UHGV virus genome: UHGV-0232909
DNA from: a virus
Length of the DNA stretch: 12,461 nt
Direction: 5' to 3' (one strand)
Of the stretch, positions 322 to 9,316 are shown piece by piece; position 1 is the stretch's first letter; every line of letters starts with the position of its first letter. A model generated the notes under the pieces. It saw only the letters and a program-made list of their open reading frames with translations, was not told the DNA's origin and did no database searches. The translations under genes and the position numbers were made by a program.

Positions 322-1130
322 TGACCACATTTACCGATAAAGAACTGATTAAAGAAATCAAAGAACGAATCAGCAGCATGGACGTGCGAGACAATGTTGA
401 GCGCCGTGCTTATGAAATTGCTCTGGCATCGCTGGAAGAGGATCCGGTGGCATGGCTGCATTCAGACAATGGCTTAGGTATTCCGGCAATAACCAGGAGT
501 AAAAACATTGCTGACAGTTGGTTATCAAAGGGCTGGTATGTTCAGCCGCTATATATAGCTAAGCCAGTGCCGGTGGTGCCAGATGCTCGTCCGTCTTTAA
601 ATAATGGCATAGTCGGTTTTGATGAAGGCTGGAACGCCTGCCGCGCTGCCATGCTCTATGGTGCCGTACCTGCAAGCCAGGCTTACAAGTTGCCACAAAC
701 GCAGTTTAAACAGGTTGCTGACCTCTACGAAATGCAATTTGATGACGGTCGCACTTGTGCCTTTCACACTGATGCGCAAAAGGCTGTGCAATGGCTTCAG
801 GCGTGCGACGGAAACAGGGTTCAGGAATACGTTAAGCTGGAACGATTGCAGAACGCACTGTCTGGCAACTCTCCGGTAACTCCGGATGGTTGGGTTATGG
901 TGCCGAAGAGACTAACAGCCGAGAACGGCGCTAAGGGGGCGCTATCCGGTGAATTTTCAGAAACTACGTTTATAAGCTGCCTGGAATGCTTTGGCGATGA
1001 TGATTGCGATACCTGTGACGGGAGCGGACGTATTGAAATTAAAGTGCCAGTCACGTGGTCGACCATAAAATCTATCTGGGATAAAGGTATCGAGTATTTT
1101 GCAGCAAAACCATCACAAGAGGTGAAGTGA
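321..1130 (+). CDS. hypothetical phage early protein with C-terminal CxxC-x5-CxxCxGxG zinc-ribbon motif
   Basis: 269-aa ORF with ATG at 321 and GGAG 4 nt upstream. C-terminus CLECFGDDDCDTCDGSGRIEIK is a DnaJ-like zinc-finger motif. Its stop TGA (1128-1130) overlaps the ATG of the exonuclease gene. No family recognised for the N-terminal 200 aa. Confidence 0.6.
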   Translation: MTTFTDKELIKEIKERISSMDVRDNVERRAYEIALASLEEDPVAWLHSDNGLGIPAITRSKNIADSWLSKGWYVQPLYIAKPVPVVPDARPSLNNGIVGFDEGWNACRAAMLYGAVPASQAYKLPQTQFKQVADLYEMQFDDGRTCAFHTDAQKAVQWLQACDGNRVQEYVKLERLQNALSGNSPVTPDGWVMVPKRLTAENGAKGALSGEFSETTFISCLECFGDDDCDTCDGSGRIEIKVPVTWSTIKSIWDKGIEYFAAKPSQEVK

Positions 1131-1702
1131 TGAACAACTTAATGATCGACCTTGAGACGATGGGGAAAAATAAGGATGCACCGATCGTTTCCATTGGCGC
1201 GGTGTTCTTCACTCCAGAAACCGGAGACATCGGACAAGAATTCTATACGGTTGTTAGCCTGGAAAGTGCTATGGGGCAAGGAGCTACACCTGACGGCGAT
1301 ACCATCCTGTGGTGGTTGAAACAAAGCCCTGAAGCACGAGCTGCAATCTGTATTGATGATACTTTGTCGATCAGCGATGCTCTCTCAGAACTAAATCATT
1401 TCATTAACCGGCACGCAGACAATACGAAATATTTAAAAGTCTGGGGTAACGGAGCCACCTTCGACAACGTAATTTTACGTGGAGCTTATGAGCGAGCAGG
1501 ACAAATCTGCCCGTGGGCATACTGGAATGACCACGATGTACGCACGATCGTTACGCTTGGGCGTTCCATCGGATTCGACCCCAAAATGGACATGCCTTTC
1601 GATGGCGAACGGCACAACGCCCTGGCTGATGCCCGTCATCAGGCAAAATATGTTTCCGCTATCTGGCAGAAATTAATTCCTGCCACCAGCACAGAATTAT
1701 GA
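1130..1702 (+). CDS. DEDDh-family 3'-5' exonuclease (DnaQ/RNase T-like), phage-encoded
   Basis: Exo I motif MIDLETMG (D-x-E), Exo II motif WGNGATFDNVIL, Exo III motif HNALADARHQAKY (H-x4-D) are all present in order. The ORF track starts at GTG 1127; ATG at 1130 with GAGG at 1118-1121 is the more likely start. Confidence 0.85.
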   Translation: MNNLMIDLETMGKNKDAPIVSIGAVFFTPETGDIGQEFYTVVSLESAMGQGATPDGDTILWWLKQSPEARAAICIDDTLSISDALSELNHFINRHADNTKYLKVWGNGATFDNVILRGAYERAGQICPWAYWNDHDVRTIVTLGRSIGFDPKMDMPFDGERHNALADARHQAKYVSAIWQKLIPATSTEL

Positions 1703-1738
1703 TTTTCCCGGGTGCAGCCGGTTTTGATGGAGAAAATT

Positions 1739-2020
1739 ATGAACACCTTGTTTTTACTGATGGCTGAATTCAATACCCCTAACATTGAACTCTCAGCAGT
1801 TAGCCAAAAGTACTTTGGCATGAGTCCAGCCACGGCAGAAGCAAAAGCAAACGCTTGTAAGTTGCCCGTTCCAACATATCGCATCGGCACATCACAAAAA
1901 GCAAAACGTTGCATCAATATTCAGGATCTTGCGGAATACATAGACAAAAGACGAGAAGAAGGACGTATCGAGTGGGAACAGGTCAGAACAAGCAAACAGA
2001 AGGGCAAAGAACATCACTAA
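1739..2020 (+). CDS. PrtN/excisionase-like small DNA-binding protein (putative Xis)
   Basis: N-terminus MNTLFLLMAEF... is typical of the PrtN / prophage excisionase-like family. GGAG at 1729-1732 sits 6 nt before ATG 1739; the longer ORF-track version starts at GTG 1712 without an RBS. Located upstream of, and in the same orientation as, the integrase. Confidence 0.65.
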   Translation: MNTLFLLMAEFNTPNIELSAVSQKYFGMSPATAEAKANACKLPVPTYRIGTSQKAKRCINIQDLAEYIDKRREEGRIEWEQVRTSKQKGKEHH

Positions 2021-2280: not shown

Positions 2281-2700
2281 TTACTCATCATCAATAGATG
2301 ATACGCAATATTTATTTTTAAATTTAAGGTTCTTTGGCGTAACTTCATCAGAGATATCAAAACCGTCCAGAATTCTATTGAATGTAGCTTCTGGCATATC
2401 ATCATGAACAGAAATCTCACCCGATCGCTGCTTTCTAACCATGTTATCCACTCGCCAAATTATAGCTTCAGCGTAAACAACATAACTTGGATGCTTGATA
2501 AAGCGATGATCACCAGAATTCAAGATGCAAGACGGATCGTGGGGGACACCATCCTTGATACTAGAAATATTAACAACTAAAACACAATAACAATCGTTAA
2601 CGGGGTAATAAACAGGATCATTACAAATCACATGAAGATGATTGCATGGCCCAGTTGGGGCAAGCACAGTTCCTTTCCTGTATGGCTGATAATCCGTCAT
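2281..2700 (-). CDS. unknown 139-aa protein translationally coupled to the Panacea-domain gene (candidate toxin/effector)
   Basis: ATGA overlap with the upstream gene (stop/start share 2697-2700). No recognised family. Cys/His-rich N-terminal half (CNHLHVICNDP...DCYC...DPSC...DHRFIKHPS) and acidic C-terminus (SSIDDE). AT-rich codon usage unlike the flanking phage genes. Confidence 0.65.
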   Translation of the reverse strand: MTDYQPYRKGTVLAPTGPCNHLHVICNDPVYYPVNDCYCVLVVNISSIKDGVPHDPSCILNSGDHRFIKHPSYVVYAEAIIWRVDNMVRKQRSGEISVHDDMPEATFNRILDGFDISDEVTPKNLKFKNKYCVSSIDDE

Positions 2701-3269
2701 GATAATTGCAAAGAAAATTCCTTAAGTTTCTGAGATTCTTCCATTTTGCCAATTATGCGATTAGCCTCATCCTCGCTTTTACCCTCACTGATCAGCATTT
2801 CTTTCAGGTCTATAGGCTTACGAGAATTGCCAGGATCGTGCCACTCTGGACAAACGCTTTCTAAATGCGTCATATTTGCGAGATCAAATCGGTTCATATG
2901 CCCATACCGAGAATAGATTTCATCTAAAATCCGGATATCTGCACGACTCAATTCATCAAAGACCTCGTCTGCATCCATTTCCCTCGGATCTGAACGCAAC
3001 GATACATTATGCCCGTTCGTCTCTATCAAGTTGTACCAGTAGTCACCAATGCCTTCAGCCTTACCGCGAATCAAGTTCAGCGTATTCGACATGACTGGTC
3101 CAAATTTCATAGAGTAAAGGCTATCTTCGCCGATCATCCTGCCATGCTTCAAAATCGACTGGCGGTTAGACAGATAGAGCAACTTCATCAATTTCAGATA
3201 TGCCATGCGCCCACCTCGCTTAAGAAGTAGGTATGCAGCCATTTGAGCTACTTTTTCTTCGCAAAACAT
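2697..3269 (-). CDS. Panacea-domain protein (SocA/PanA-like; DUF4065), putative antitoxin
   Basis: 190-aa ORF. The segment AAYLLLKRGG-RMAYLKLMKLLYLSN...KFGPV matches the Panacea-domain core pattern (K-L-x-K-L-L-Y ... G-P-V). GAGG lies upstream of the ATG (complement of 3267-3269). First gene of a three-gene minus-strand operon. Confidence 0.75.
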   Translation of the reverse strand: MFCEEKVAQMAAYLLLKRGGRMAYLKLMKLLYLSNRQSILKHGRMIGEDSLYSMKFGPVMSNTLNLIRGKAEGIGDYWYNLIETNGHNVSLRSDPREMDADEVFDELSRADIRILDEIYSRYGHMNRFDLANMTHLESVCPEWHDPGNSRKPIDLKEMLISEGKSEDEANRIIGKMEESQKLKEFSLQLS

Positions 3270-3660
3270 ATAAGAAACCTCAAAGATAGTGAACTTTATA
3301 ATTATTCTCGATACTTCATGGGTTGCTTCATCACCAACACGAGCTTCTTATGGTGTGCCCACTTGGGCCTAAGCAACCAGTTACCTCGTTTGTCAAGTTT
3401 ATAGCTGGCTTTAACCATGGTCAATTGAAGTGATGAGCAAATGATGCTTTCTAAGAATAACAGGTTCCCAATAGGCTCCCACAAAGTGTATAACTAGTTG
3501 TTTTTCAAAAACGGTACATCCTATCGAGCATAGGAGCAATGCTAAACCGAGAATTCCAGTAAACACCAGTTTTTTCAGGCATCACGCTGGTTTGATTAAT
3601 TTTTTGTGTTTCATGATTATCGTGCATTTTTGAACATTTCAGGCTATTTTTCTCGCATTA

Positions 3661-3696
3661 GGTTCCCGCACAGGTTCCCACGTTTTATGGGAACCC
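3661..3696. promoter_or_regulatory. cluster of GGTTCCC(A) repeats immediately upstream of int (candidate operator or integrase arm-type sites)
   Basis: GGTTCCC at 3661-3667 and 3673-3679 (direct) and GGGAACC at 3689-3695 (inverted), giving the palindrome GGTTCCCA-cgtttta-TGGGAACC. A second pair, CAGGTTCCCA / AGGCTCCCA, lies at 3461-3480. The int RBS (GAGG, 3705-3708) and ATG (3716) follow directly. Confidence 0.3.
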
Positions 3697-3715
3697 GAAA
3701 TAACGAGGTCGTGTA

Positions 3716-4813
3716 ATGGCGTACTATAACATAGAGAAACGACTAAAATCCGATGGCACACCACGCTATCGCTGTAATGTGATTATCAAAGAAAAAGGTG
3801 TTATCACTTACAGGGAAAGCAAAACATTCCCTAAACATGCTCATGCCAAAACATGGGGCACACAGAAAGTGATGGAATTAGATCTATATGGCATTCCATC
3901 ATCAAATGCAGTTGACGGACTTACAGTCCGTGACTTACTACACAAATATTTAAATGACCCAAATGCCGGAGGTAAAGCAGGCCGTACTAAAAGATATGTG
4001 CTGGAACTGCTTATGGATAGTGACATCTCCGCGATCAAACTATCTGAACTGACAGAAAATGACGTAATTGAACATTGCAGGCTAAGAAACAACGCTGGCG
4101 CAGGTCCAGCAACAGTCAGCCACGATGTTAGTTATCTTGGCAGTGTTCTGGATGCGGCCAAACCTGTATACGGAATTAATTACACATCAAACCCGGCGAA
4201 AAGTGCTCGTCCATATCTACTTAAACTTGGTTTGATTGGTAAATCAAACCGTCGTAATCGTAGACCAGCATCTGATGAACTGGACATGCTCATTGAAGGC
4301 CTTCAACAACGATCTACTCATAAATGCTCAAAAATTCCGTTCGTTGATATCCTCAAATTTTCTGTGTGGTCCTGTATGCGAATCGGAGAAGTATGCCGGT
4401 TACGATGGGAAGATCTCGACCAGGAACAAAAATCTATACTCGTAAGAGACAGGAAAGATCCACGCAAAAAGGAAGGCAACCACATGAAAGTAGCCTTGCT
4501 TGGGGAAGCCTGGGATATCGTCCAACGACAGCCCAAAAAATCGGAATTCATTTTTCCATATAACAGCACTTCTATTACTGCGGGATTTCAGAGGGTAAGA
4601 AGCAAATTAGGTATTAAGGATCTGCGATACCATGATTTGCGTAGAGAAGGGGCAAGTCGCTTATTTGAGGCTGGTTTTAGTATTGAGGAAGTAGCCCAGG
4701 TTACAGGGCATCGTTCATTAAACGTGCTATGGCAGGTATATACCGAACTGTATCCGAAATCTTTACATAATCGTTTTGAAGAGCTCCAAAGGAGCAGAAA
4801 TAAGACCCCTTGA
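3716..4813 (+). CDS. int: tyrosine-type site-specific integrase
   Basis: 365-aa ORF with RBS GAGG 7 nt upstream. Carries the conserved tyrosine-recombinase boxes: MRIGEVCRLRWEDLD (Arg box), HDLRREGASRL (H-x-x-R) and a C-terminal GHRSLNVLWQVYTELY with the candidate catalytic Tyr. Confidence 0.9.
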   Translation: MAYYNIEKRLKSDGTPRYRCNVIIKEKGVITYRESKTFPKHAHAKTWGTQKVMELDLYGIPSSNAVDGLTVRDLLHKYLNDPNAGGKAGRTKRYVLELLMDSDISAIKLSELTENDVIEHCRLRNNAGAGPATVSHDVSYLGSVLDAAKPVYGINYTSNPAKSARPYLLKLGLIGKSNRRNRRPASDELDMLIEGLQQRSTHKCSKIPFVDILKFSVWSCMRIGEVCRLRWEDLDQEQKSILVRDRKDPRKKEGNHMKVALLGEAWDIVQRQPKKSEFIFPYNSTSITAGFQRVRSKLGIKDLRYHDLRREGASRLFEAGFSIEEVAQVTGHRSLNVLWQVYTELYPKSLHNRFEELQRSRNKTP

Positions 4814-4861
4814 CACTGTTTATCCATACAGTTAAAAATAATACTGTATACAAACACAGTA
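4810..4861 (+). promoter_or_regulatory. SOS-regulated promoter: TTGACA -35 hexamer plus two LexA boxes (CTGT-N8-ACAG)
   Basis: TTGACA at 4810-4815 overlaps the int stop codon. LexA-like box 1 is caCTGTttatccatACAGtt (4814-4833). Box 2 is taCTGTatacaaacACAGta (4842-4861), a near-consensus SOS box lying between the promoter and the RBS AGAGGG (4863-4868) of the DinI-like gene. Confidence 0.6.
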
Positions 4862-4874
4862 TAGAGGGACTTTT

Positions 4875-5123
4875 ATGCGTATTGAAATCTGCATAGCCAA
4901 AGAAAAAATGACTAAAATGCCAACCGGTGCTGTGGATGCGTTAAAGGAAGAATTAACCCGACGCATCAGTAAACGTTATGACGATGTAGAGGTGATCGTA
5001 AAAGCCACCAGCAACGATGGCCTTTCTGTTACACGCACCGCAGATAAGGATTCTGCAAAAACTTTTGTTCAGGAGACTCTGAAAGATACCTGGGAATCTG
5101 CTGACGAGTGGTTTGTTCACTAA
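4875..5123 (+). CDS. dinI: DinI-family DNA-damage-inducible protein (phage-borne paralogue)
   Basis: 82-aa protein [31 protein letters not shown]...[16 protein letters not shown] aligns along its whole length with E. coli DinI from memory (MRIEVTIAK...QETWESADDWFV). Preceded by LexA boxes and a good RBS. Confidence 0.85.
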
Positions 5124-5190
5124 TTAACACGTAAAATCGGTAACGGCTGGAAATCATTCAATAATCGCACTATCGAAAGTTCGCCAGCCA

Positions 5191-5226
5191 GCCGCAGCAC
5201 GTTCTTGCATACGACGTGGCTGCGGC
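5191..5226. other. extended imperfect stem-loop between the DinI-like gene and the invertase remnant
   Basis: GCCGCAGC (5191-5198) pairs with GCTGCGGC (5219-5226); the inner CACGT/ACGTG also pair, giving a stem of about 12 bp with one bulge and an 11-nt loop. No clear U-tract on either strand, so it is not a canonical intrinsic terminator. Confidence 0.35.
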
Positions 5227-5266
5227 TTCCAACATTAGACAAATAACTCTTTAAATTGCTTTTAAA

Positions 5267-5635
5267 TTATTTCGTTTGAATGCCAGTAACAGGAAATCGT
5301 TTATATAGGGTTGATAGCCCAACGTTATAGATACGTGCAACATAACGCCGTGATTTCCCTGCCGCTATGAGCGCTCCCATCTGTTGCCACTGCTCGTCGC
5401 TAAACTTCGGTCTACGCCCACCAATCCGGCCTTTGGATCTGGCAATAGCCAAACCAGCTAAAGTTCGCTCGCTATTCAAATCAGATTCATACTGCGCAGC
5501 AGAAAGAATATTACGGAAATTATAGCGACCACTTGCTGTTTTCAGGTCTACGCCATCTGTAATACTCCGAAAATTAACACCTTTTTCGTGCAGATTTTGA
5601 AACATCAATAGCGCATGCAGCACATTTCTCCCTAA
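5267..5635 (-). pseudogene. pin: N-terminally truncated serine DNA invertase (Pin/Gin/Hin family) remnant
   Basis: The translation ...PLGRN-MLHALLMFQNLHEKGVNFRSITDGVDL...SKGRIGGRRPKFSDEQWQQ...YNVGLSTLYK matches the C-terminal two thirds of Pin/Gin (LGRSMKHLISLVGELRERGINFRSLTDSIDT...NKGRIGGRPPKL...ALSTLYKK). The roughly 70 N-terminal residues, including the catalytic Ser region, are absent; similarity stops near 5636 and no ATG-initiated full-length frame exists. Confidence 0.8.
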
Positions 5636-5641
5636 GGGGAA

Positions 5642-6001
5642 TTGTCTGCTGCTGGGGTTAGCGGTGGCGCTGCATCTGCTTCAGGATACATCACCATTCC
5701 GATGATTATTAATGGAGCAAGGCGGGTCTTATACATCCAATGGGGGGGATTTACAGGAACTACAGATAGCTCCGGCTCCAACGGAATATATGAAACCTCA
5801 AATATCACCGTCACCTGGACAGTTGCTTTCCCCAATGCGGTTTTCCAGGTGATAACAGGCGGTTCATCTGATGTTAGTGGTGTCGGGCAGCAAGAGATGG
5901 CATGGAGTCTGGGCAAAACAAAAACTAATGGGATTTTTGGTTTTCAATGCCGGACACCAAACGCATCGATGACTGGCTCATATCTTGTAATTGGTTATTA
6001 A
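5642..6001 (+). CDS. tail-fibre C-terminal (variable-domain) cassette lacking an N-terminal anchor domain; silent alternative segment
   Basis: Gly/Ser/Thr-rich beta-type sequence typical of phage tail-fibre distal domains. The frame opens at 5636 exactly where invertase homology ends on the other strand; only a TTG start (5642) is available. Directly followed by a tfa gene, the usual Sv'-U' arrangement of Mu G / P1 C / e14 invertible segments. Confidence 0.55.
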   Translation: MSAAGVSGGAASASGYITIPMIINGARRVLYIQWGGFTGTTDSSGSNGIYETSNITVTWTVAFPNAVFQVITGGSSDVSGVGQQEMAWSLGKTKTNGIFGFQCRTPNASMTGSYLVIGY

Positions 6002-8267: not shown

Positions 8268-9316
8268 GAAATCGTCCCCAGTACCGCCAGTTCGTTTTTC
8301 GCAATGGAGATATTGTCCACCGGTGCAAGCAACTGATGGCTGTATTCCCCGTTCGCACCGGAAATCGCCTCACTGATACGCGATACCTTCAGTTCTCCCT
8401 GCGGATAACCATCACGCAGCAGGAACGAACGCAACTCCGCGGTAATGGCAGCCCGTATTTCCGGTGTGTCCGGCGTCACGCGGATATGAAAATCCACCGT
8501 ATGTGCCACCGGCCTGAATACATACAAATCAGAGCCTGCCACCGGGGCCAGTGGCCCGATATGTTGTCTTGCTGCCGTTTCCGTTGATTCTTCCGGAATG
8601 GGATTAATCAGGTCACTGCTGGCAATCATCACACCGACAGTTCCCGTTCCCATCCAGTGACGGTATGTCCATGCGCGGGTAATGCCGGGCACTTCTTTAG
8701 CCCAGACGACATAGTCCCCGTCAGCCCCGCCCTGCGGCGTCCAGTAATACCGCTCAATGACGCGGGCGCGCCACGTTTCCAGATCTTCTGTATCAAATCC
8801 GCCTGTCAGGGTGTCAGTCACACCGGAAGACGGCAGACCATTCACCGGCGTGACCAGGATTAATGCCGTACCATCGTCAGCGTTACCGACCGCGCCTGTA
8901 GTTGAGCAAGTGATCGGCACACGCAGGACACCACCGGAGCTGGTTGCATCGGCAGTTGCCGTGTACTGAACCAGGTCATCGCGCTGAATCACGCTCCCGG
9001 CAGTCACCTTCAGGCCATCGCTGACACCTTCCCAGCGCATATACCCGCTGGCAGCCGTGGCCCCCTTGCGCGGACACCGTTTCATCGCAGCATGTCGCGC
9101 CAGCCAGGACTCATCGCACAGGTCAGGCAGCATATTCATTGCCAGATAATCGATGTACCCGTAAACCGTATGCAGCGCCGCCGCATACACCTTTGCCCGC
9201 ACGTCTTCATCCATGCGCCGGAGCGTGTCGCTGACGTCCAGCCTGGCGAATAAATCGTTACGGAGCATACTGATATTTTCTGCCAGCGTCGGGCGCTGAA
9301 ATTCACTGTCCGCCAT
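8258..9316 (-). CDS. baseplate J-like protein (Mu gp47 / P2 gpJ family)
   Basis: 352-aa protein in the conserved order gp46-gp47-gp48. ATG at the complement of 9314-9316. Overlaps both neighbours, indicating translational coupling. Confidence 0.85.

Follow-up and report, generated by a model that had tools for sequence, protein, structure and literature searches.

The DNA analysed here, called the window below, is a 12,461-nt stretch of the virus genome UHGV-0232909. It belongs to an SfV-like temperate phage of E. coli with dusA as its integration site, and the gene order in E. coli chromosomes is dusA, int, dinI. Its closest relative, SKA5, is 99% identical over the 86% of the window that it covers. 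The features of the int–dinI region are collected in Table 1. The integrase gene is followed directly by a promoter with two LexA-type boxes, a gene for a DinI paralogue, an untranslated stretch and a GC-rich hairpin. As the first-pass annotation had pointed out, the int stop codon lies within the −35 hexamer of the dinI promoter.

Table 1. Features of the int–dinI region, in positions of the window
Feature	Position	Strand	Basis or remark
int, tyrosine integrase of dusA-targeting type	3716–4813	+	ORF list; Pfam Phage_integrase, E 1.6e-20
int stop codon TGA	4811–4813	+	inside the −35 hexamer TTGACA of the dinI promoter
−35 hexamer TTGACA; also 5′ boundary of the mobile dinI cassette	4810–4815	+	promoter scan
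LexA box 1 (predicted), 20-mer CACTGTTTATCCATACAGTT	4814–4833	+	fills the −35/−10 spacer
LexA box 1 core CTGTTTATCCATACAG	4816–4831	+	exact CTGT-N8-ACAG
−10 hexamer AAAAAT, 18-nt spacer	4834–4839	+	promoter scan
LexA box 2 (predicted) TACTGTATACAAACACAGTA, core 4844–4859	4842–4861	+	13 nt 5′ of ATG
Shine-Dalgarno-like GAGGGA, 5 nt 5′ of ATG	4864–4869	+	direct sequence reading
dinI paralogue, 82 aa, monocistronic	4875–5123	+	Pfam DinI, PDB match, dN/dS
3′ untranslated stretch	5124–5189	+	common to the window and the VT1-Sakai lineage
GC-rich hairpin, cassette 3′ boundary, probable terminator	5190–5227	.	fold −22.4 kcal/mol

A near-consensus SOS box and a second CTGT-N8-ACAG box, both overlapping a TTGACA promoter, had been proposed for this region, and both were found with exact cores. 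Box 1 occupies the spacer between the −35 and −10 elements and box 2 begins 3 nt after the −10 hexamer. The motif occurs twice in the 12.4-kb window, both times at the dinI promoter and within 44 bp, where 0.14 occurrences would be expected; two copies were reached in only 1 of 200 shuffles of the window. The boxes were also scored with a LexA position weight matrix (PWM) built from 24 E. coli sites after a published compilation, of which the dinI site alone was checked against sequence. Box 2 scored 24.6 bits and box 1 22.1 bits, whereas the next best 20-mer in the window reached 8.9 bits and the maximum over 200 shuffles was 19.0. The leave-one-out scores of the known E. coli sites range from 9.6 to 26.6 bits, which places both boxes among values like those of the best proven sites.

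The promoter itself was called by consensus match only, with TTGACA and AAAAAT separated by 18 nt (10 of 12 positions, 4810–4839). The GenBank annotators of the phages mEp460 and VT1-Sakai chose an alternative −10 element, TAAAAA, which corresponds to positions 4833–4838 and a 17-nt spacer. Either version of the −10 element is weak. The dinI transcription start is predicted at about position 4846, within box 2. We retain only part of the statement that the boxes drive dinI: two LexA-type boxes are present, but it is the promoter that drives the gene, while the boxes would repress and gate it. Owing to the box in its spacer, the dinI promoter probably ranks among the more tightly shut ones of the SOS regulon. 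We considered that LexA might bind cooperatively, with the boxes in a fixed phase, and rejected this: from centre to centre the boxes are 28 bp apart in the window, and in VT1-Sakai and BP-4795 the distance is 29 bp, so that there is no fixed helical phase and cooperativity cannot be assumed.

The conservation of the boxes was followed in 13 phage dinI homologues (37–100% amino acid identity) from phages of E. coli, Klebsiella, Salmonella, Yersinia and Aeromonas. A protein-based search for the locus in viral contigs gave only copies that were 99–100% identical, and the diverged homologues came from a tblastn search of phage records. In 11 of the 13 homologues a LexA box of 17.8–27.6 bits is located 13–19 nt 5′ of the ATG. 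The twelfth, in Yersinia phage YeP1, has its box 305 nt upstream of dinI, before a preceding ORF, and the sole homologue without a box is a 5′-rearranged copy adjoining IS629. Tandem boxes are found in the window and mEp460, in PhiR12_5, in VT1-Sakai and in BP-4795, and the arrangement is kept in the att-proximal lineage, with box 1 preserved as CTGG...ACAG in VT1-Sakai. Among 31 distinct cassettes, none of the 16 core box positions varies, as against 10 of 36 four-fold degenerate sites and 6 of the 12 positions between the boxes. The core and spacer of box 2 are invariant in this set, and the core of box 1 likewise. PhiR12_5 was discarded as independent evidence of constraint on the promoter, its promoter and the first ~50 nt of its coding sequence being a recombinant copy of the window type.

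The gene downstream had been described as encoding a full-length DinI homologue, and the homology stands. The product matches the Pfam DinI profile (PF06183) over its entire length (positions 1–63 of 63; E 1.1e-19, 70.9 bits, the cut-off being 24.2). It can also be aligned from end to end with the E. coli DinI of known structure (PDB 1GHH/7YWA; E 3.7e-13, query 1–81 to chain 1–79). E. coli DinI contacts the RecA filament through a hydrophobic pocket (L13, L21, W71, W77 and F78) and an acidic patch (E24, E69 and D76) (PMC9926225). In the 1GHH/7YWA alignment, the pocket residues correspond to M15, L23, W73, W79 and F80 of the phage protein and those of the patch to E26, D71 and E78, so that five of the eight contact residues are identical and three are conservative replacements. 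Purifying selection on the coding sequence is clear, with dN/dS of 0.09–0.23 against four diverged cassettes. No + strand ORF of at least 20 aa was found after dinI in 5124–5266, before the convergent invertase gene, and we therefore regard dinI as monocistronic.

The first-pass annotation had also taken the gene to be an SOS-controlled moron placed directly after int, and the sequence statistics, the protein searches and the diverged phage dinI loci support a self-contained unit of this kind. Matches to Stx phages start at window positions 4807–4810 (query bases 1208–1211), and only the segment of about 4807–5240 is common to these phages and the window. In other contexts the flanking sequences switch at the −35 hexamer and at the hairpin, and the contexts themselves vary: the cassette is found after int, adjoining att sites, or beside capsid or hypothetical genes. 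Since homology to other phages begins at the −35 element and ends at the hairpin, the dinI cassette has, judged from these boundaries, the form of a classic moron, that is, an autonomous accessory unit. It carries its own promoter, which besides the consensus match is annotated as such in GenBank records NC_019716 (mEp460) and AP000400 (VT1-Sakai). Of 5426 complete E. coli genomes, 1831 (34%) contain the cassette, with 3509 copies in all and up to 7 in one genome.

The 3′ hairpin has arms of 14 and 15 nt with one bulge and a 9-nt loop, and its stem is maintained by compensatory changes in 22 variants. Several variants have 5–7 T in the next 8 nt, whereas the window variant is without a U-tract, and a consensus scan of 4600–5400 returned no intrinsic terminator, neither here nor between int and dinI. 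The hairpin is the probable terminator of the dinI transcript.

The cassette is not new. In the VT1-Sakai (Sp15) record, the same gene (H0001, dinI; 95% amino acid identity) occupies the same att-proximal position, and AP000400 already annotates a 'putative promoter of H0001 and H0002' and a 'LexA protein, putative SOS box' in front of it. The latter covers only the ATG-proximal box, the equivalent of box 2. VT1-Sakai has the same TTGACA-N17-TAAAAA layout, with two LexA-type boxes 42 and 13 nt 5′ of the ATG, and the same 3′UTR and hairpin as the window. Its promoter nevertheless belongs to a second type of sequence, whose boxes score lower, at 15.8 and 18.2 bits compared with 22.1 and 24.6 in the window; moreover, its cassette adjoins the yehV att site, whereas that of the window follows a dusA-type int, and it continues on the same strand with a small ykgJ-like ORF that is lacking in the window. 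The H0001 cassette is also present in many Stx1, Stx2a and Stx2c phages. In the lambda-like siphovirus mEp460, gp21 ('RecA filament binding protein DinI') is 100% identical to the window protein, and the int–dinI segment has 98.5% DNA identity. Its record has a promoter in the equivalent position, across the int stop codon, but no LexA site, and a lambda J-type tail fibre gene comes after the cassette. Box 1, in the promoter spacer, is the only feature that is without annotation in both NC_019716 and AP000400.

The chromosomal dinI of E. coli K-12 (b1061) belongs to the same family and can be aligned end to end with the phage protein at ~45% amino acid identity, as counted from the 1GHH/7YWA alignment. 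Its proven LexA box aligns with box 2 of the window and its −35 element, TTGTCA, is homologous to TTGACA. However, K-12 dinI has a single box, 19 nt 5′ of the ATG, and no LexA box stands in the K-12 stretch opposite box 1. Relative to K-12, the phage promoter has 14 extra bases in the alignment, and these bear the separate −10 element. At the other end, K-12 dinI has a short 3′UTR with a T-rich terminator. Experiments have established that LexA controls prophage dinI genes, and for the Salmonella Gifsy phages this is textbook-level knowledge: in Gifsy-1, -2 and -3, dinI lies behind a LexA box, and both LexA dependence and induction by DNA damage were demonstrated by experiment (PMC3121763, PMC8072944). 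A literature search gave no match joining dinI, Shiga toxin and SOS box.

The promoter and box sequences, the DinI family membership, the conservation of the boxes and of the contact residues, the purifying selection and the cassette boundaries were observed directly; from them we infer LexA occupancy, SOS inducibility, RecA binding and a physiological effect for the cassette. The reading that we consider likely is that of an SOS-gated, self-contained moron whose extra phage DinI damps RecA-dependent cleavage. Two high-affinity LexA operators would cover the sigma-70 promoter TTGACA/AAAAAT, and as long as the DNA of the lysogen is undamaged, LexA dimers bound to the two of them would hold it shut. 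Upon DNA damage, RecA filaments would form, LexA would cleave itself and the dinI promoter would open. The 82-aa paralogue would then be made from a monocistronic transcript, predicted at about 380 nt, ending near the hairpin, and would add to the host DinI pool. The phage protein retains the residues that place E. coli DinI in the RecA filament groove, a groove that LexA, UmuD and lambda-type CI repressors also use. DinI action is dose dependent (PMC6590174): at stoichiometric levels the protein stabilises filaments, and in excess it blocks co-protease reactions. The likeliest effect of extra phage copies would be that cleavage of UmuD and of S24-type prophage repressors is damped or delayed, which would raise the damage threshold for induction and mutagenesis.

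That phage DinI could tune repressor cleavage or host mutagenesis is plausible because the RecA-contact residues are conserved and because SKA5 has an S24-type CI. The SKA5 repressor combines HTH_3 and Peptidase_S24 domains and is thus of the cleavable type, evidence that comes from SKA5 and not from the window's own genome. The Gifsy deletion described below qualifies this role.

A less favoured explanation, which we hold to be unlikely, though less so than the other alternatives, is that the gene serves the lysogen. Here the extra DinI made in the SOS response would stabilise RecA filaments and restrict the cleavage of UmuD, with better survival or less mutagenesis under DNA-damaging stress such as quinolones, and prophage induction would not be meaningfully affected. 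The evidence for regulation and RecA binding is the same as for the damping of repressor cleavage. The presence of the cassette in 34% of the complete E. coli genomes, with up to 7 copies, also fits such a benefit, as does a correlative report (PMC10575684) in which the gene groups linked to evolving resistance to quinolones in E. coli included a DinI-like gene from a viral region. Furthermore, induction of the Gifsy prophages of Salmonella was not measurably changed by deleting their dinI homologue (PMC3121763). This deletion is not the relevant test, however, because the Gifsy phages use antirepressors and not repressor cleavage.

It is improbable that an RNA is the main product, in which case an SOS-induced small RNA from 5124–5227 would act and the protein would be secondary. 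The precedent is Klebsiella pneumoniae dinI, which has a LexA ChIP signal and whose 3′UTR releases the small RNA DinR (PMC10907235). As in the window, where the LexA control is predicted, a LexA-controlled dinI is followed there by a longer 3′UTR ending in a hairpin, and the 66-nt 3′UTR and stable hairpin are common to the window and VT1-Sakai lineages. However, DinR pairs with ftsZ through a Klebsiella-specific stretch of the UTR, and no such pairing was found for the window UTR: with the UTR and with the 3′ end of the coding sequence plus the UTR, pairing to the E. coli K-12 ftsZ leader was no better than for shuffled sequences (a fraction of 0.51 and 0.45 of the shuffles, respectively, paired with an energy as low as the observed one or lower). 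The 3′UTR is missing from PhiR12_5, BP-4795 and Klebsiella phage P18-100, and its diversity is near neutral (0.040, close to the 0.066 at four-fold sites), in contrast to the selection on the coding sequence. Hfq-dependent small RNAs usually carry a U-tract, which the window hairpin does not have. Moreover, no family on the + strand came out of an Rfam search with a permissive threshold, in which the one match, a weak one, was to CssrB on the minus strand and covered the hairpin alone.

Less credible still is the reading of the cassette as the sensor arm of an antirepressor switch. An antirepressor, fused to DinI or co-transcribed with it, would then put prophage induction itself under LexA control, and DinI would be a passenger. 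Such systems exist. In the Gifsy phages, a LexA-boxed dinI heads an operon with the antirepressor gene gfoA or gftA, and the Tum protein of coliphage 186 (also known in Fels-2 and PSP3) is a LexA-repressed 146-aa antirepressor–DinI fusion (PMC3121763). A small same-strand ORF also follows the nin-region dinI in mEp237, SP-016, SEN34, PHB10 and pAEv1818, and the distant YeP1 box stands ahead of another ORF. The window differs from these systems. The Gifsy dinI has a single box and lies in the nin region (Lemire et al. 2011, PMC3121763), whereas the cassette is att-proximal; the Gifsy antirepressor triggers induction, whereas the window dinI stands alone; and the window protein has the DinI-like module in common with Tum without the antirepressor part, its 82 aa being the length of DinI alone. 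Since the stretch from the dinI stop (5123) to the invertase gene contains no + strand ORF of at least 20 aa, this reading is close to refuted. The cleavable HTH + S24 CI also speaks against it, as tested in the closest relative SKA5 and not in the window's genome. A LexA-controlled antirepressor module of the 186 Tum, GfoA/GftA or N15 AntC kind was rejected, since no fused antirepressor and, in 5124–5266, no co-transcribed ORF of at least 20 aa were found.

Just as remote is the idea that LexA does not bind the two palindromes, which would be there by chance or as relics, and that dinI is expressed constitutively or by read-through from int, a gene of the same orientation from which no called terminator separates it; against this idea stand the pair of exact boxes, PWM scores above all 200 shuffles, core positions that are invariant while their neighbours vary, a box position conserved across genera, and homologous loci that are LexA-controlled by experiment in Gifsy and Klebsiella.

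The finding mainly confirms that a widespread cassette has been correctly annotated. Phage DinI copies may matter in lysogens whose repressors are cleaved through RecA, including those of Shiga-toxin phages, in which the induction threshold determines toxin release. A further proposal, which we regard as doubtful, is that phage dinI cassettes act as a dose-dependent RecA co-protease brake common to co-resident prophages, each cassette (up to 7 per E. coli genome) standing behind very tight tandem LexA operators. If this were true, the summed DinI would fill the RecA groove and delay cleavage of S24-type CI and UmuD after the loss of LexA, and in relatives such as SKA5, which also encode an uncleavable LexA DNA-binding domain, that protein could re-close the operators once lytic growth is under way. 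The summed DinI would then determine at what level of damage any cleavable prophage of the cell is induced, Stx phages included, and one prophage could restrain its competitors.

As the first-pass annotation had claimed, the end of int is followed by a promoter with two exact CTGT-N8-ACAG boxes, and the int stop codon lies inside its -35 hexamer (see the table). The promoter scan matched TTGACA-18-AAAAAT at 10 of 12 positions; with this spacing, box 1 fills the promoter spacer, and the predicted transcription start (~4846), placed by inference, would lie beneath box 2. The CTGT-N8-ACAG pattern occurs twice in the 12.4-kb window, both times ahead of dinI, against an expectation of 0.14, and two matches were reached in only one of 200 shuffles of the window. 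Both boxes were also scored, a check proposed in that annotation. The weight matrix was based on 24 sites for E. coli LexA from a published compilation, of which the dinI site alone was checked against sequence; it gave 24.6 bits for box 2 and 22.1 bits for box 1, above all 200 window shuffles (maximum 19.0). The next-best 20-mer in the window scored 8.9 bits, and proven LexA sites scored 9.6-26.6 bits when left out one at a time from the same matrix. That the boxes are chance palindromes is excluded by these score and shuffle statistics, together with the conservation of the boxes.

Elements of the int-dinI region, with the basis of each assignment
Feature	Position	Strand	Basis
int ORF	3716-4813	+	ORF list and Pfam Phage_integrase
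int stop codon TGA	4811-4813	+	inside the -35 hexamer
-35 hexamer TTGACA, perfect	4810-4815	+	sequence and promoter scan
Box 1 core, perfect CTGT-N8-ACAG	4816-4831	palindrome	pattern scan
Box 2 core, perfect CTGT-N8-ACAG	4844-4859	palindrome	within the 20-mer TACTGTATACAAACACAGTA, 4842-4861
Ribosome-binding site GAGGGA	4864-4869	+	read from sequence
dinI ORF, 82 codons	4875-5123	+	Pfam DinI

Conservation was assessed among 13 phage dinI homologues (37-100% protein identity) from phages of E. coli, Klebsiella, Salmonella, Yersinia and Aeromonas. In 11 of them a box lies 13-19 nt before the ATG and scores 17.8-27.6 bits; in Yersinia YeP1 it is found 305 nt upstream of dinI, ahead of the preceding ORF, which resembles a Tum-like arrangement, and the sole exception is a copy with a rearranged 5′ end beside IS629. 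Tandem boxes, one 41-42 nt and the other 13 nt ahead of the ATG, occur only in the att-proximal lineage (the window and mEp460, PhiR12_5, VT1-Sakai and BP-4795). Chromosomal K-12 dinI has a single box, aligned with box 2. The VT1-Sakai type retains both boxes, but with different sequences and lower scores than those of the window. Variation among 31 distinct cassettes spares all 16 core positions of the two boxes but affects 10 of 36 four-fold sites and 6 of the 12 positions between the boxes. With a box spacing of 28 bp in the window but 29 bp in VT1-Sakai, the helical phasing of the two boxes is not conserved.

The downstream gene had been described as a full-length DinI homologue, and this holds: the product covers the whole Pfam DinI profile (E 1.1e-19) and aligns end to end with the solved E. 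coli DinI structures 1GHH and 7YWA (E 3.7e-13). In the RecA-DinI cryo-EM study, substituting L13, L21, W71, W77, F78, E24, E69 or D76 impairs filament stabilisation (PMC9926225); the equivalents in the 1GHH/7YWA alignment are M15, L23, W73, W79, F80, E26, D71 and E78, that is, five identical residues and three conservative replacements. With dN/dS of 0.09-0.23 against four diverged cassettes, dinI is, judging from sequence, a protein-coding gene under purifying selection and not a relic.

The limits of the cassette are seen in comparisons with other phages. In many Stx1, Stx2a and Stx2c phages the match is restricted to ~4807-5240. In 80 viral contigs whose DinI is 99-100% identical, flanking sequence changes at the -35 hexamer on the upstream side and at a GC-rich hairpin (5190-5227) on the downstream side. 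The hairpin is kept through compensatory changes across 22 sequence variants, several of which have 5-7 T within the next 8 nt and are classic intrinsic terminators; the terminator scan did not call the window hairpin, which is directly followed by TCCAACAT, without a U-tract. No plus-strand ORF of at least 20 aa lies between dinI and the convergent invertase gene. Given these boundaries, and a unit of own promoter, two operators, one gene and hairpin, the cassette is therefore a moron in the usual sense, as had been proposed. The cassette is also mosaic internally. Type A promoters (window, PhiR12_5) and type B (VT1-Sakai, BP-4795) are found in all four combinations with coding type 1 (window, VT1-Sakai) and type 2 (PhiR12_5, BP-4795), with the crossover ~50 nt into dinI.

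On the minus strand, 5193-5248 was weakly matched by Rfam (22.4 bits; gathering threshold 76; E 0.036) to the 3′ hairpin of the Shigella chromosomal small RNA CssrB, and one viral-contig hairpin variant, read on that strand, is almost exactly the CssrB consensus hairpin; CssrB may therefore end at the dinI-cassette hairpin of a Shigella prophage remnant.

The window belongs to a temperate, SfV-like myovirus, in its circular or virion form; the early region is lambdoid and the tail Mu-like. Its best overall match is Escherichia phage SKA5 (86% covered, 99.0% identity). E. coli chromosomes, where matches start at 3524, carry the element in dusA, arranged as dusA, int, dinI, invertase, tail fibres. 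The attP region of this dusA-targeting element is 3505-3715, int abutting dusA in lysogens; the SKA5 annotation has a 40-aa 'tRNA-dihydrouridine' fragment on the minus strand at the equivalent of 3505-3627, and dusA apparently receives a replacement 5′ end from the phage. The lambda-like siphovirus mEp460 has the int-dinI segment in common with the window (98.5% identity), but its following tail-fibre gene is unrelated. Beside dinI, the DNA invertase gene (5267-5634, minus strand) is truncated: ORF 5267-5623 corresponds to residues 70-187 of the SKA5 invertase, a protein of 187 aa (99% identity); homology with SKA5 and with E. coli prophages breaks off inside the gene, at 5634, where a Gp53-like tail-fibre C-terminal ORF (5642-6001, plus strand) begins. 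With the catalytic N-terminus absent, this genome probably has a frozen switch for tail-fibre inversion. Between a PrtN-like excisionase gene and attP are two overlapping minus-strand ORFs (2281-3269). A SocA/Panacea antitoxin domain (E 2.2e-19) is encoded by one of them (2697-3269), its downstream partner (2281-2700) had no Pfam match, and by sequence the pair looks like a Panacea-type toxin-antitoxin, a second accessory unit. The PrtN-family gene (1712-2020, plus strand; excisionase in the mEp460 annotation) directly follows a gene (1127-1702, plus strand) for an Rv2179c-like 3′-5′ exoribonuclease-domain protein (E 4e-75; 'exonuclease' in mEp460).

The cassette is ordinary, already in public annotation and with experimental precedent in close homologues. 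Its promoter-plus-gene segment is present in 1831 of 5426 complete E. coli genomes (3509 places, up to 7 copies per genome), RefSeq naming the gene 'DinI-like family protein'. The promoter and a 'RecA filament binding protein DinI' are among the features of the mEp460 record; the VT1-Sakai record (AP000400) lists a 'putative promoter of H0001 and H0002 genes' and a 'LexA protein, putative SOS box' before H0001, 'DNA-damage-inducible protein I', which is the same gene (95% aa identity). Box 1 is the sole cassette element for which these two GenBank records yielded no annotation. Lemire et al. combined promoter replacement with lexA(Ind-) genetics and western blots to show that LexA controls the dinI homologues of the Gifsy prophages, which accumulate in response to mitomycin C; they also remarked on a DinI module in 186 Tum (PMC3121763). 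In a survey of the Salmonella SOS regulon, the three Gifsy dinI genes have boxes and are induced 4.6- to 23-fold (PMC8072944), and LexA occupies Klebsiella dinI by ChIP (PMC10907235).

SKA5 also encodes, outside the window (8484-8810 of that genome, minus strand), a 108-aa protein with the LexA DNA-binding domain only (PF01726, E 2.9e-19; without S24 peptidase domain), whose recognition helix SVNAAVEHLRAL is near LexA's SPNAAEEHLKAL. Apart from the two at dinI, the 37.6-kb genome of SKA5 has no strong LexA box (next-best 20-mer, 13.8 bits). Such an uncleavable protein might re-close SOS promoters in lytic growth, that of dinI included. A phage-encoded LexA homologue has reportedly been described in Bacillus phage GIL01.

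The features, family membership, conservation and boundaries of the cassette are matters of observation, and the structural reading, operators over the promoter and a DinI gene after int, is supported by sequence, statistics and conservation. Functionally, LexA dimers on both boxes would keep the promoter shut until DNA damage and LexA cleavage opened it; the phage paralogue would then bind the RecA filament groove, which is also used by LexA, UmuD and lambda CI. DinI acts dose-dependently, stabilising filaments at stoichiometric levels and, in excess, inhibiting UmuD cleavage and recombinase activity (PMC6590174); extra phage copies should therefore shift the cell toward the inhibitory regime, and UmuD processing, like the cleavage of S24-type prophage repressors, would be weakened or delayed. 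A repressor of this type (HTH_3 + Peptidase_S24) is encoded by SKA5, the closest relative, which is evidence from SKA5 and not from the genome of the window itself. Unchanged induction after dinI deletion in Gifsy-1 and Gifsy-3 speaks against a large effect (PMC3121763), but these deletions are not the relevant test because Gifsy prophages use antirepressors and not repressor cleavage. The gene may equally well benefit the host, in damage tolerance or quinolone adaptation, for which the one support is a published association (PMC10575684). A DinR-like small RNA from the 3′ UTR is unsupported: diversity in the UTR (0.040) is close to that at four-fold sites (0.066), and against it also stand the absence of the UTR from three diverged cassettes, the lack of a U-tract at the window hairpin, pairing with the ftsZ leader no better than in shuffles, and no plus-strand Rfam match. 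An antirepressor operon is excluded, a second ORF (at least 20 aa, plus strand) being absent after dinI.
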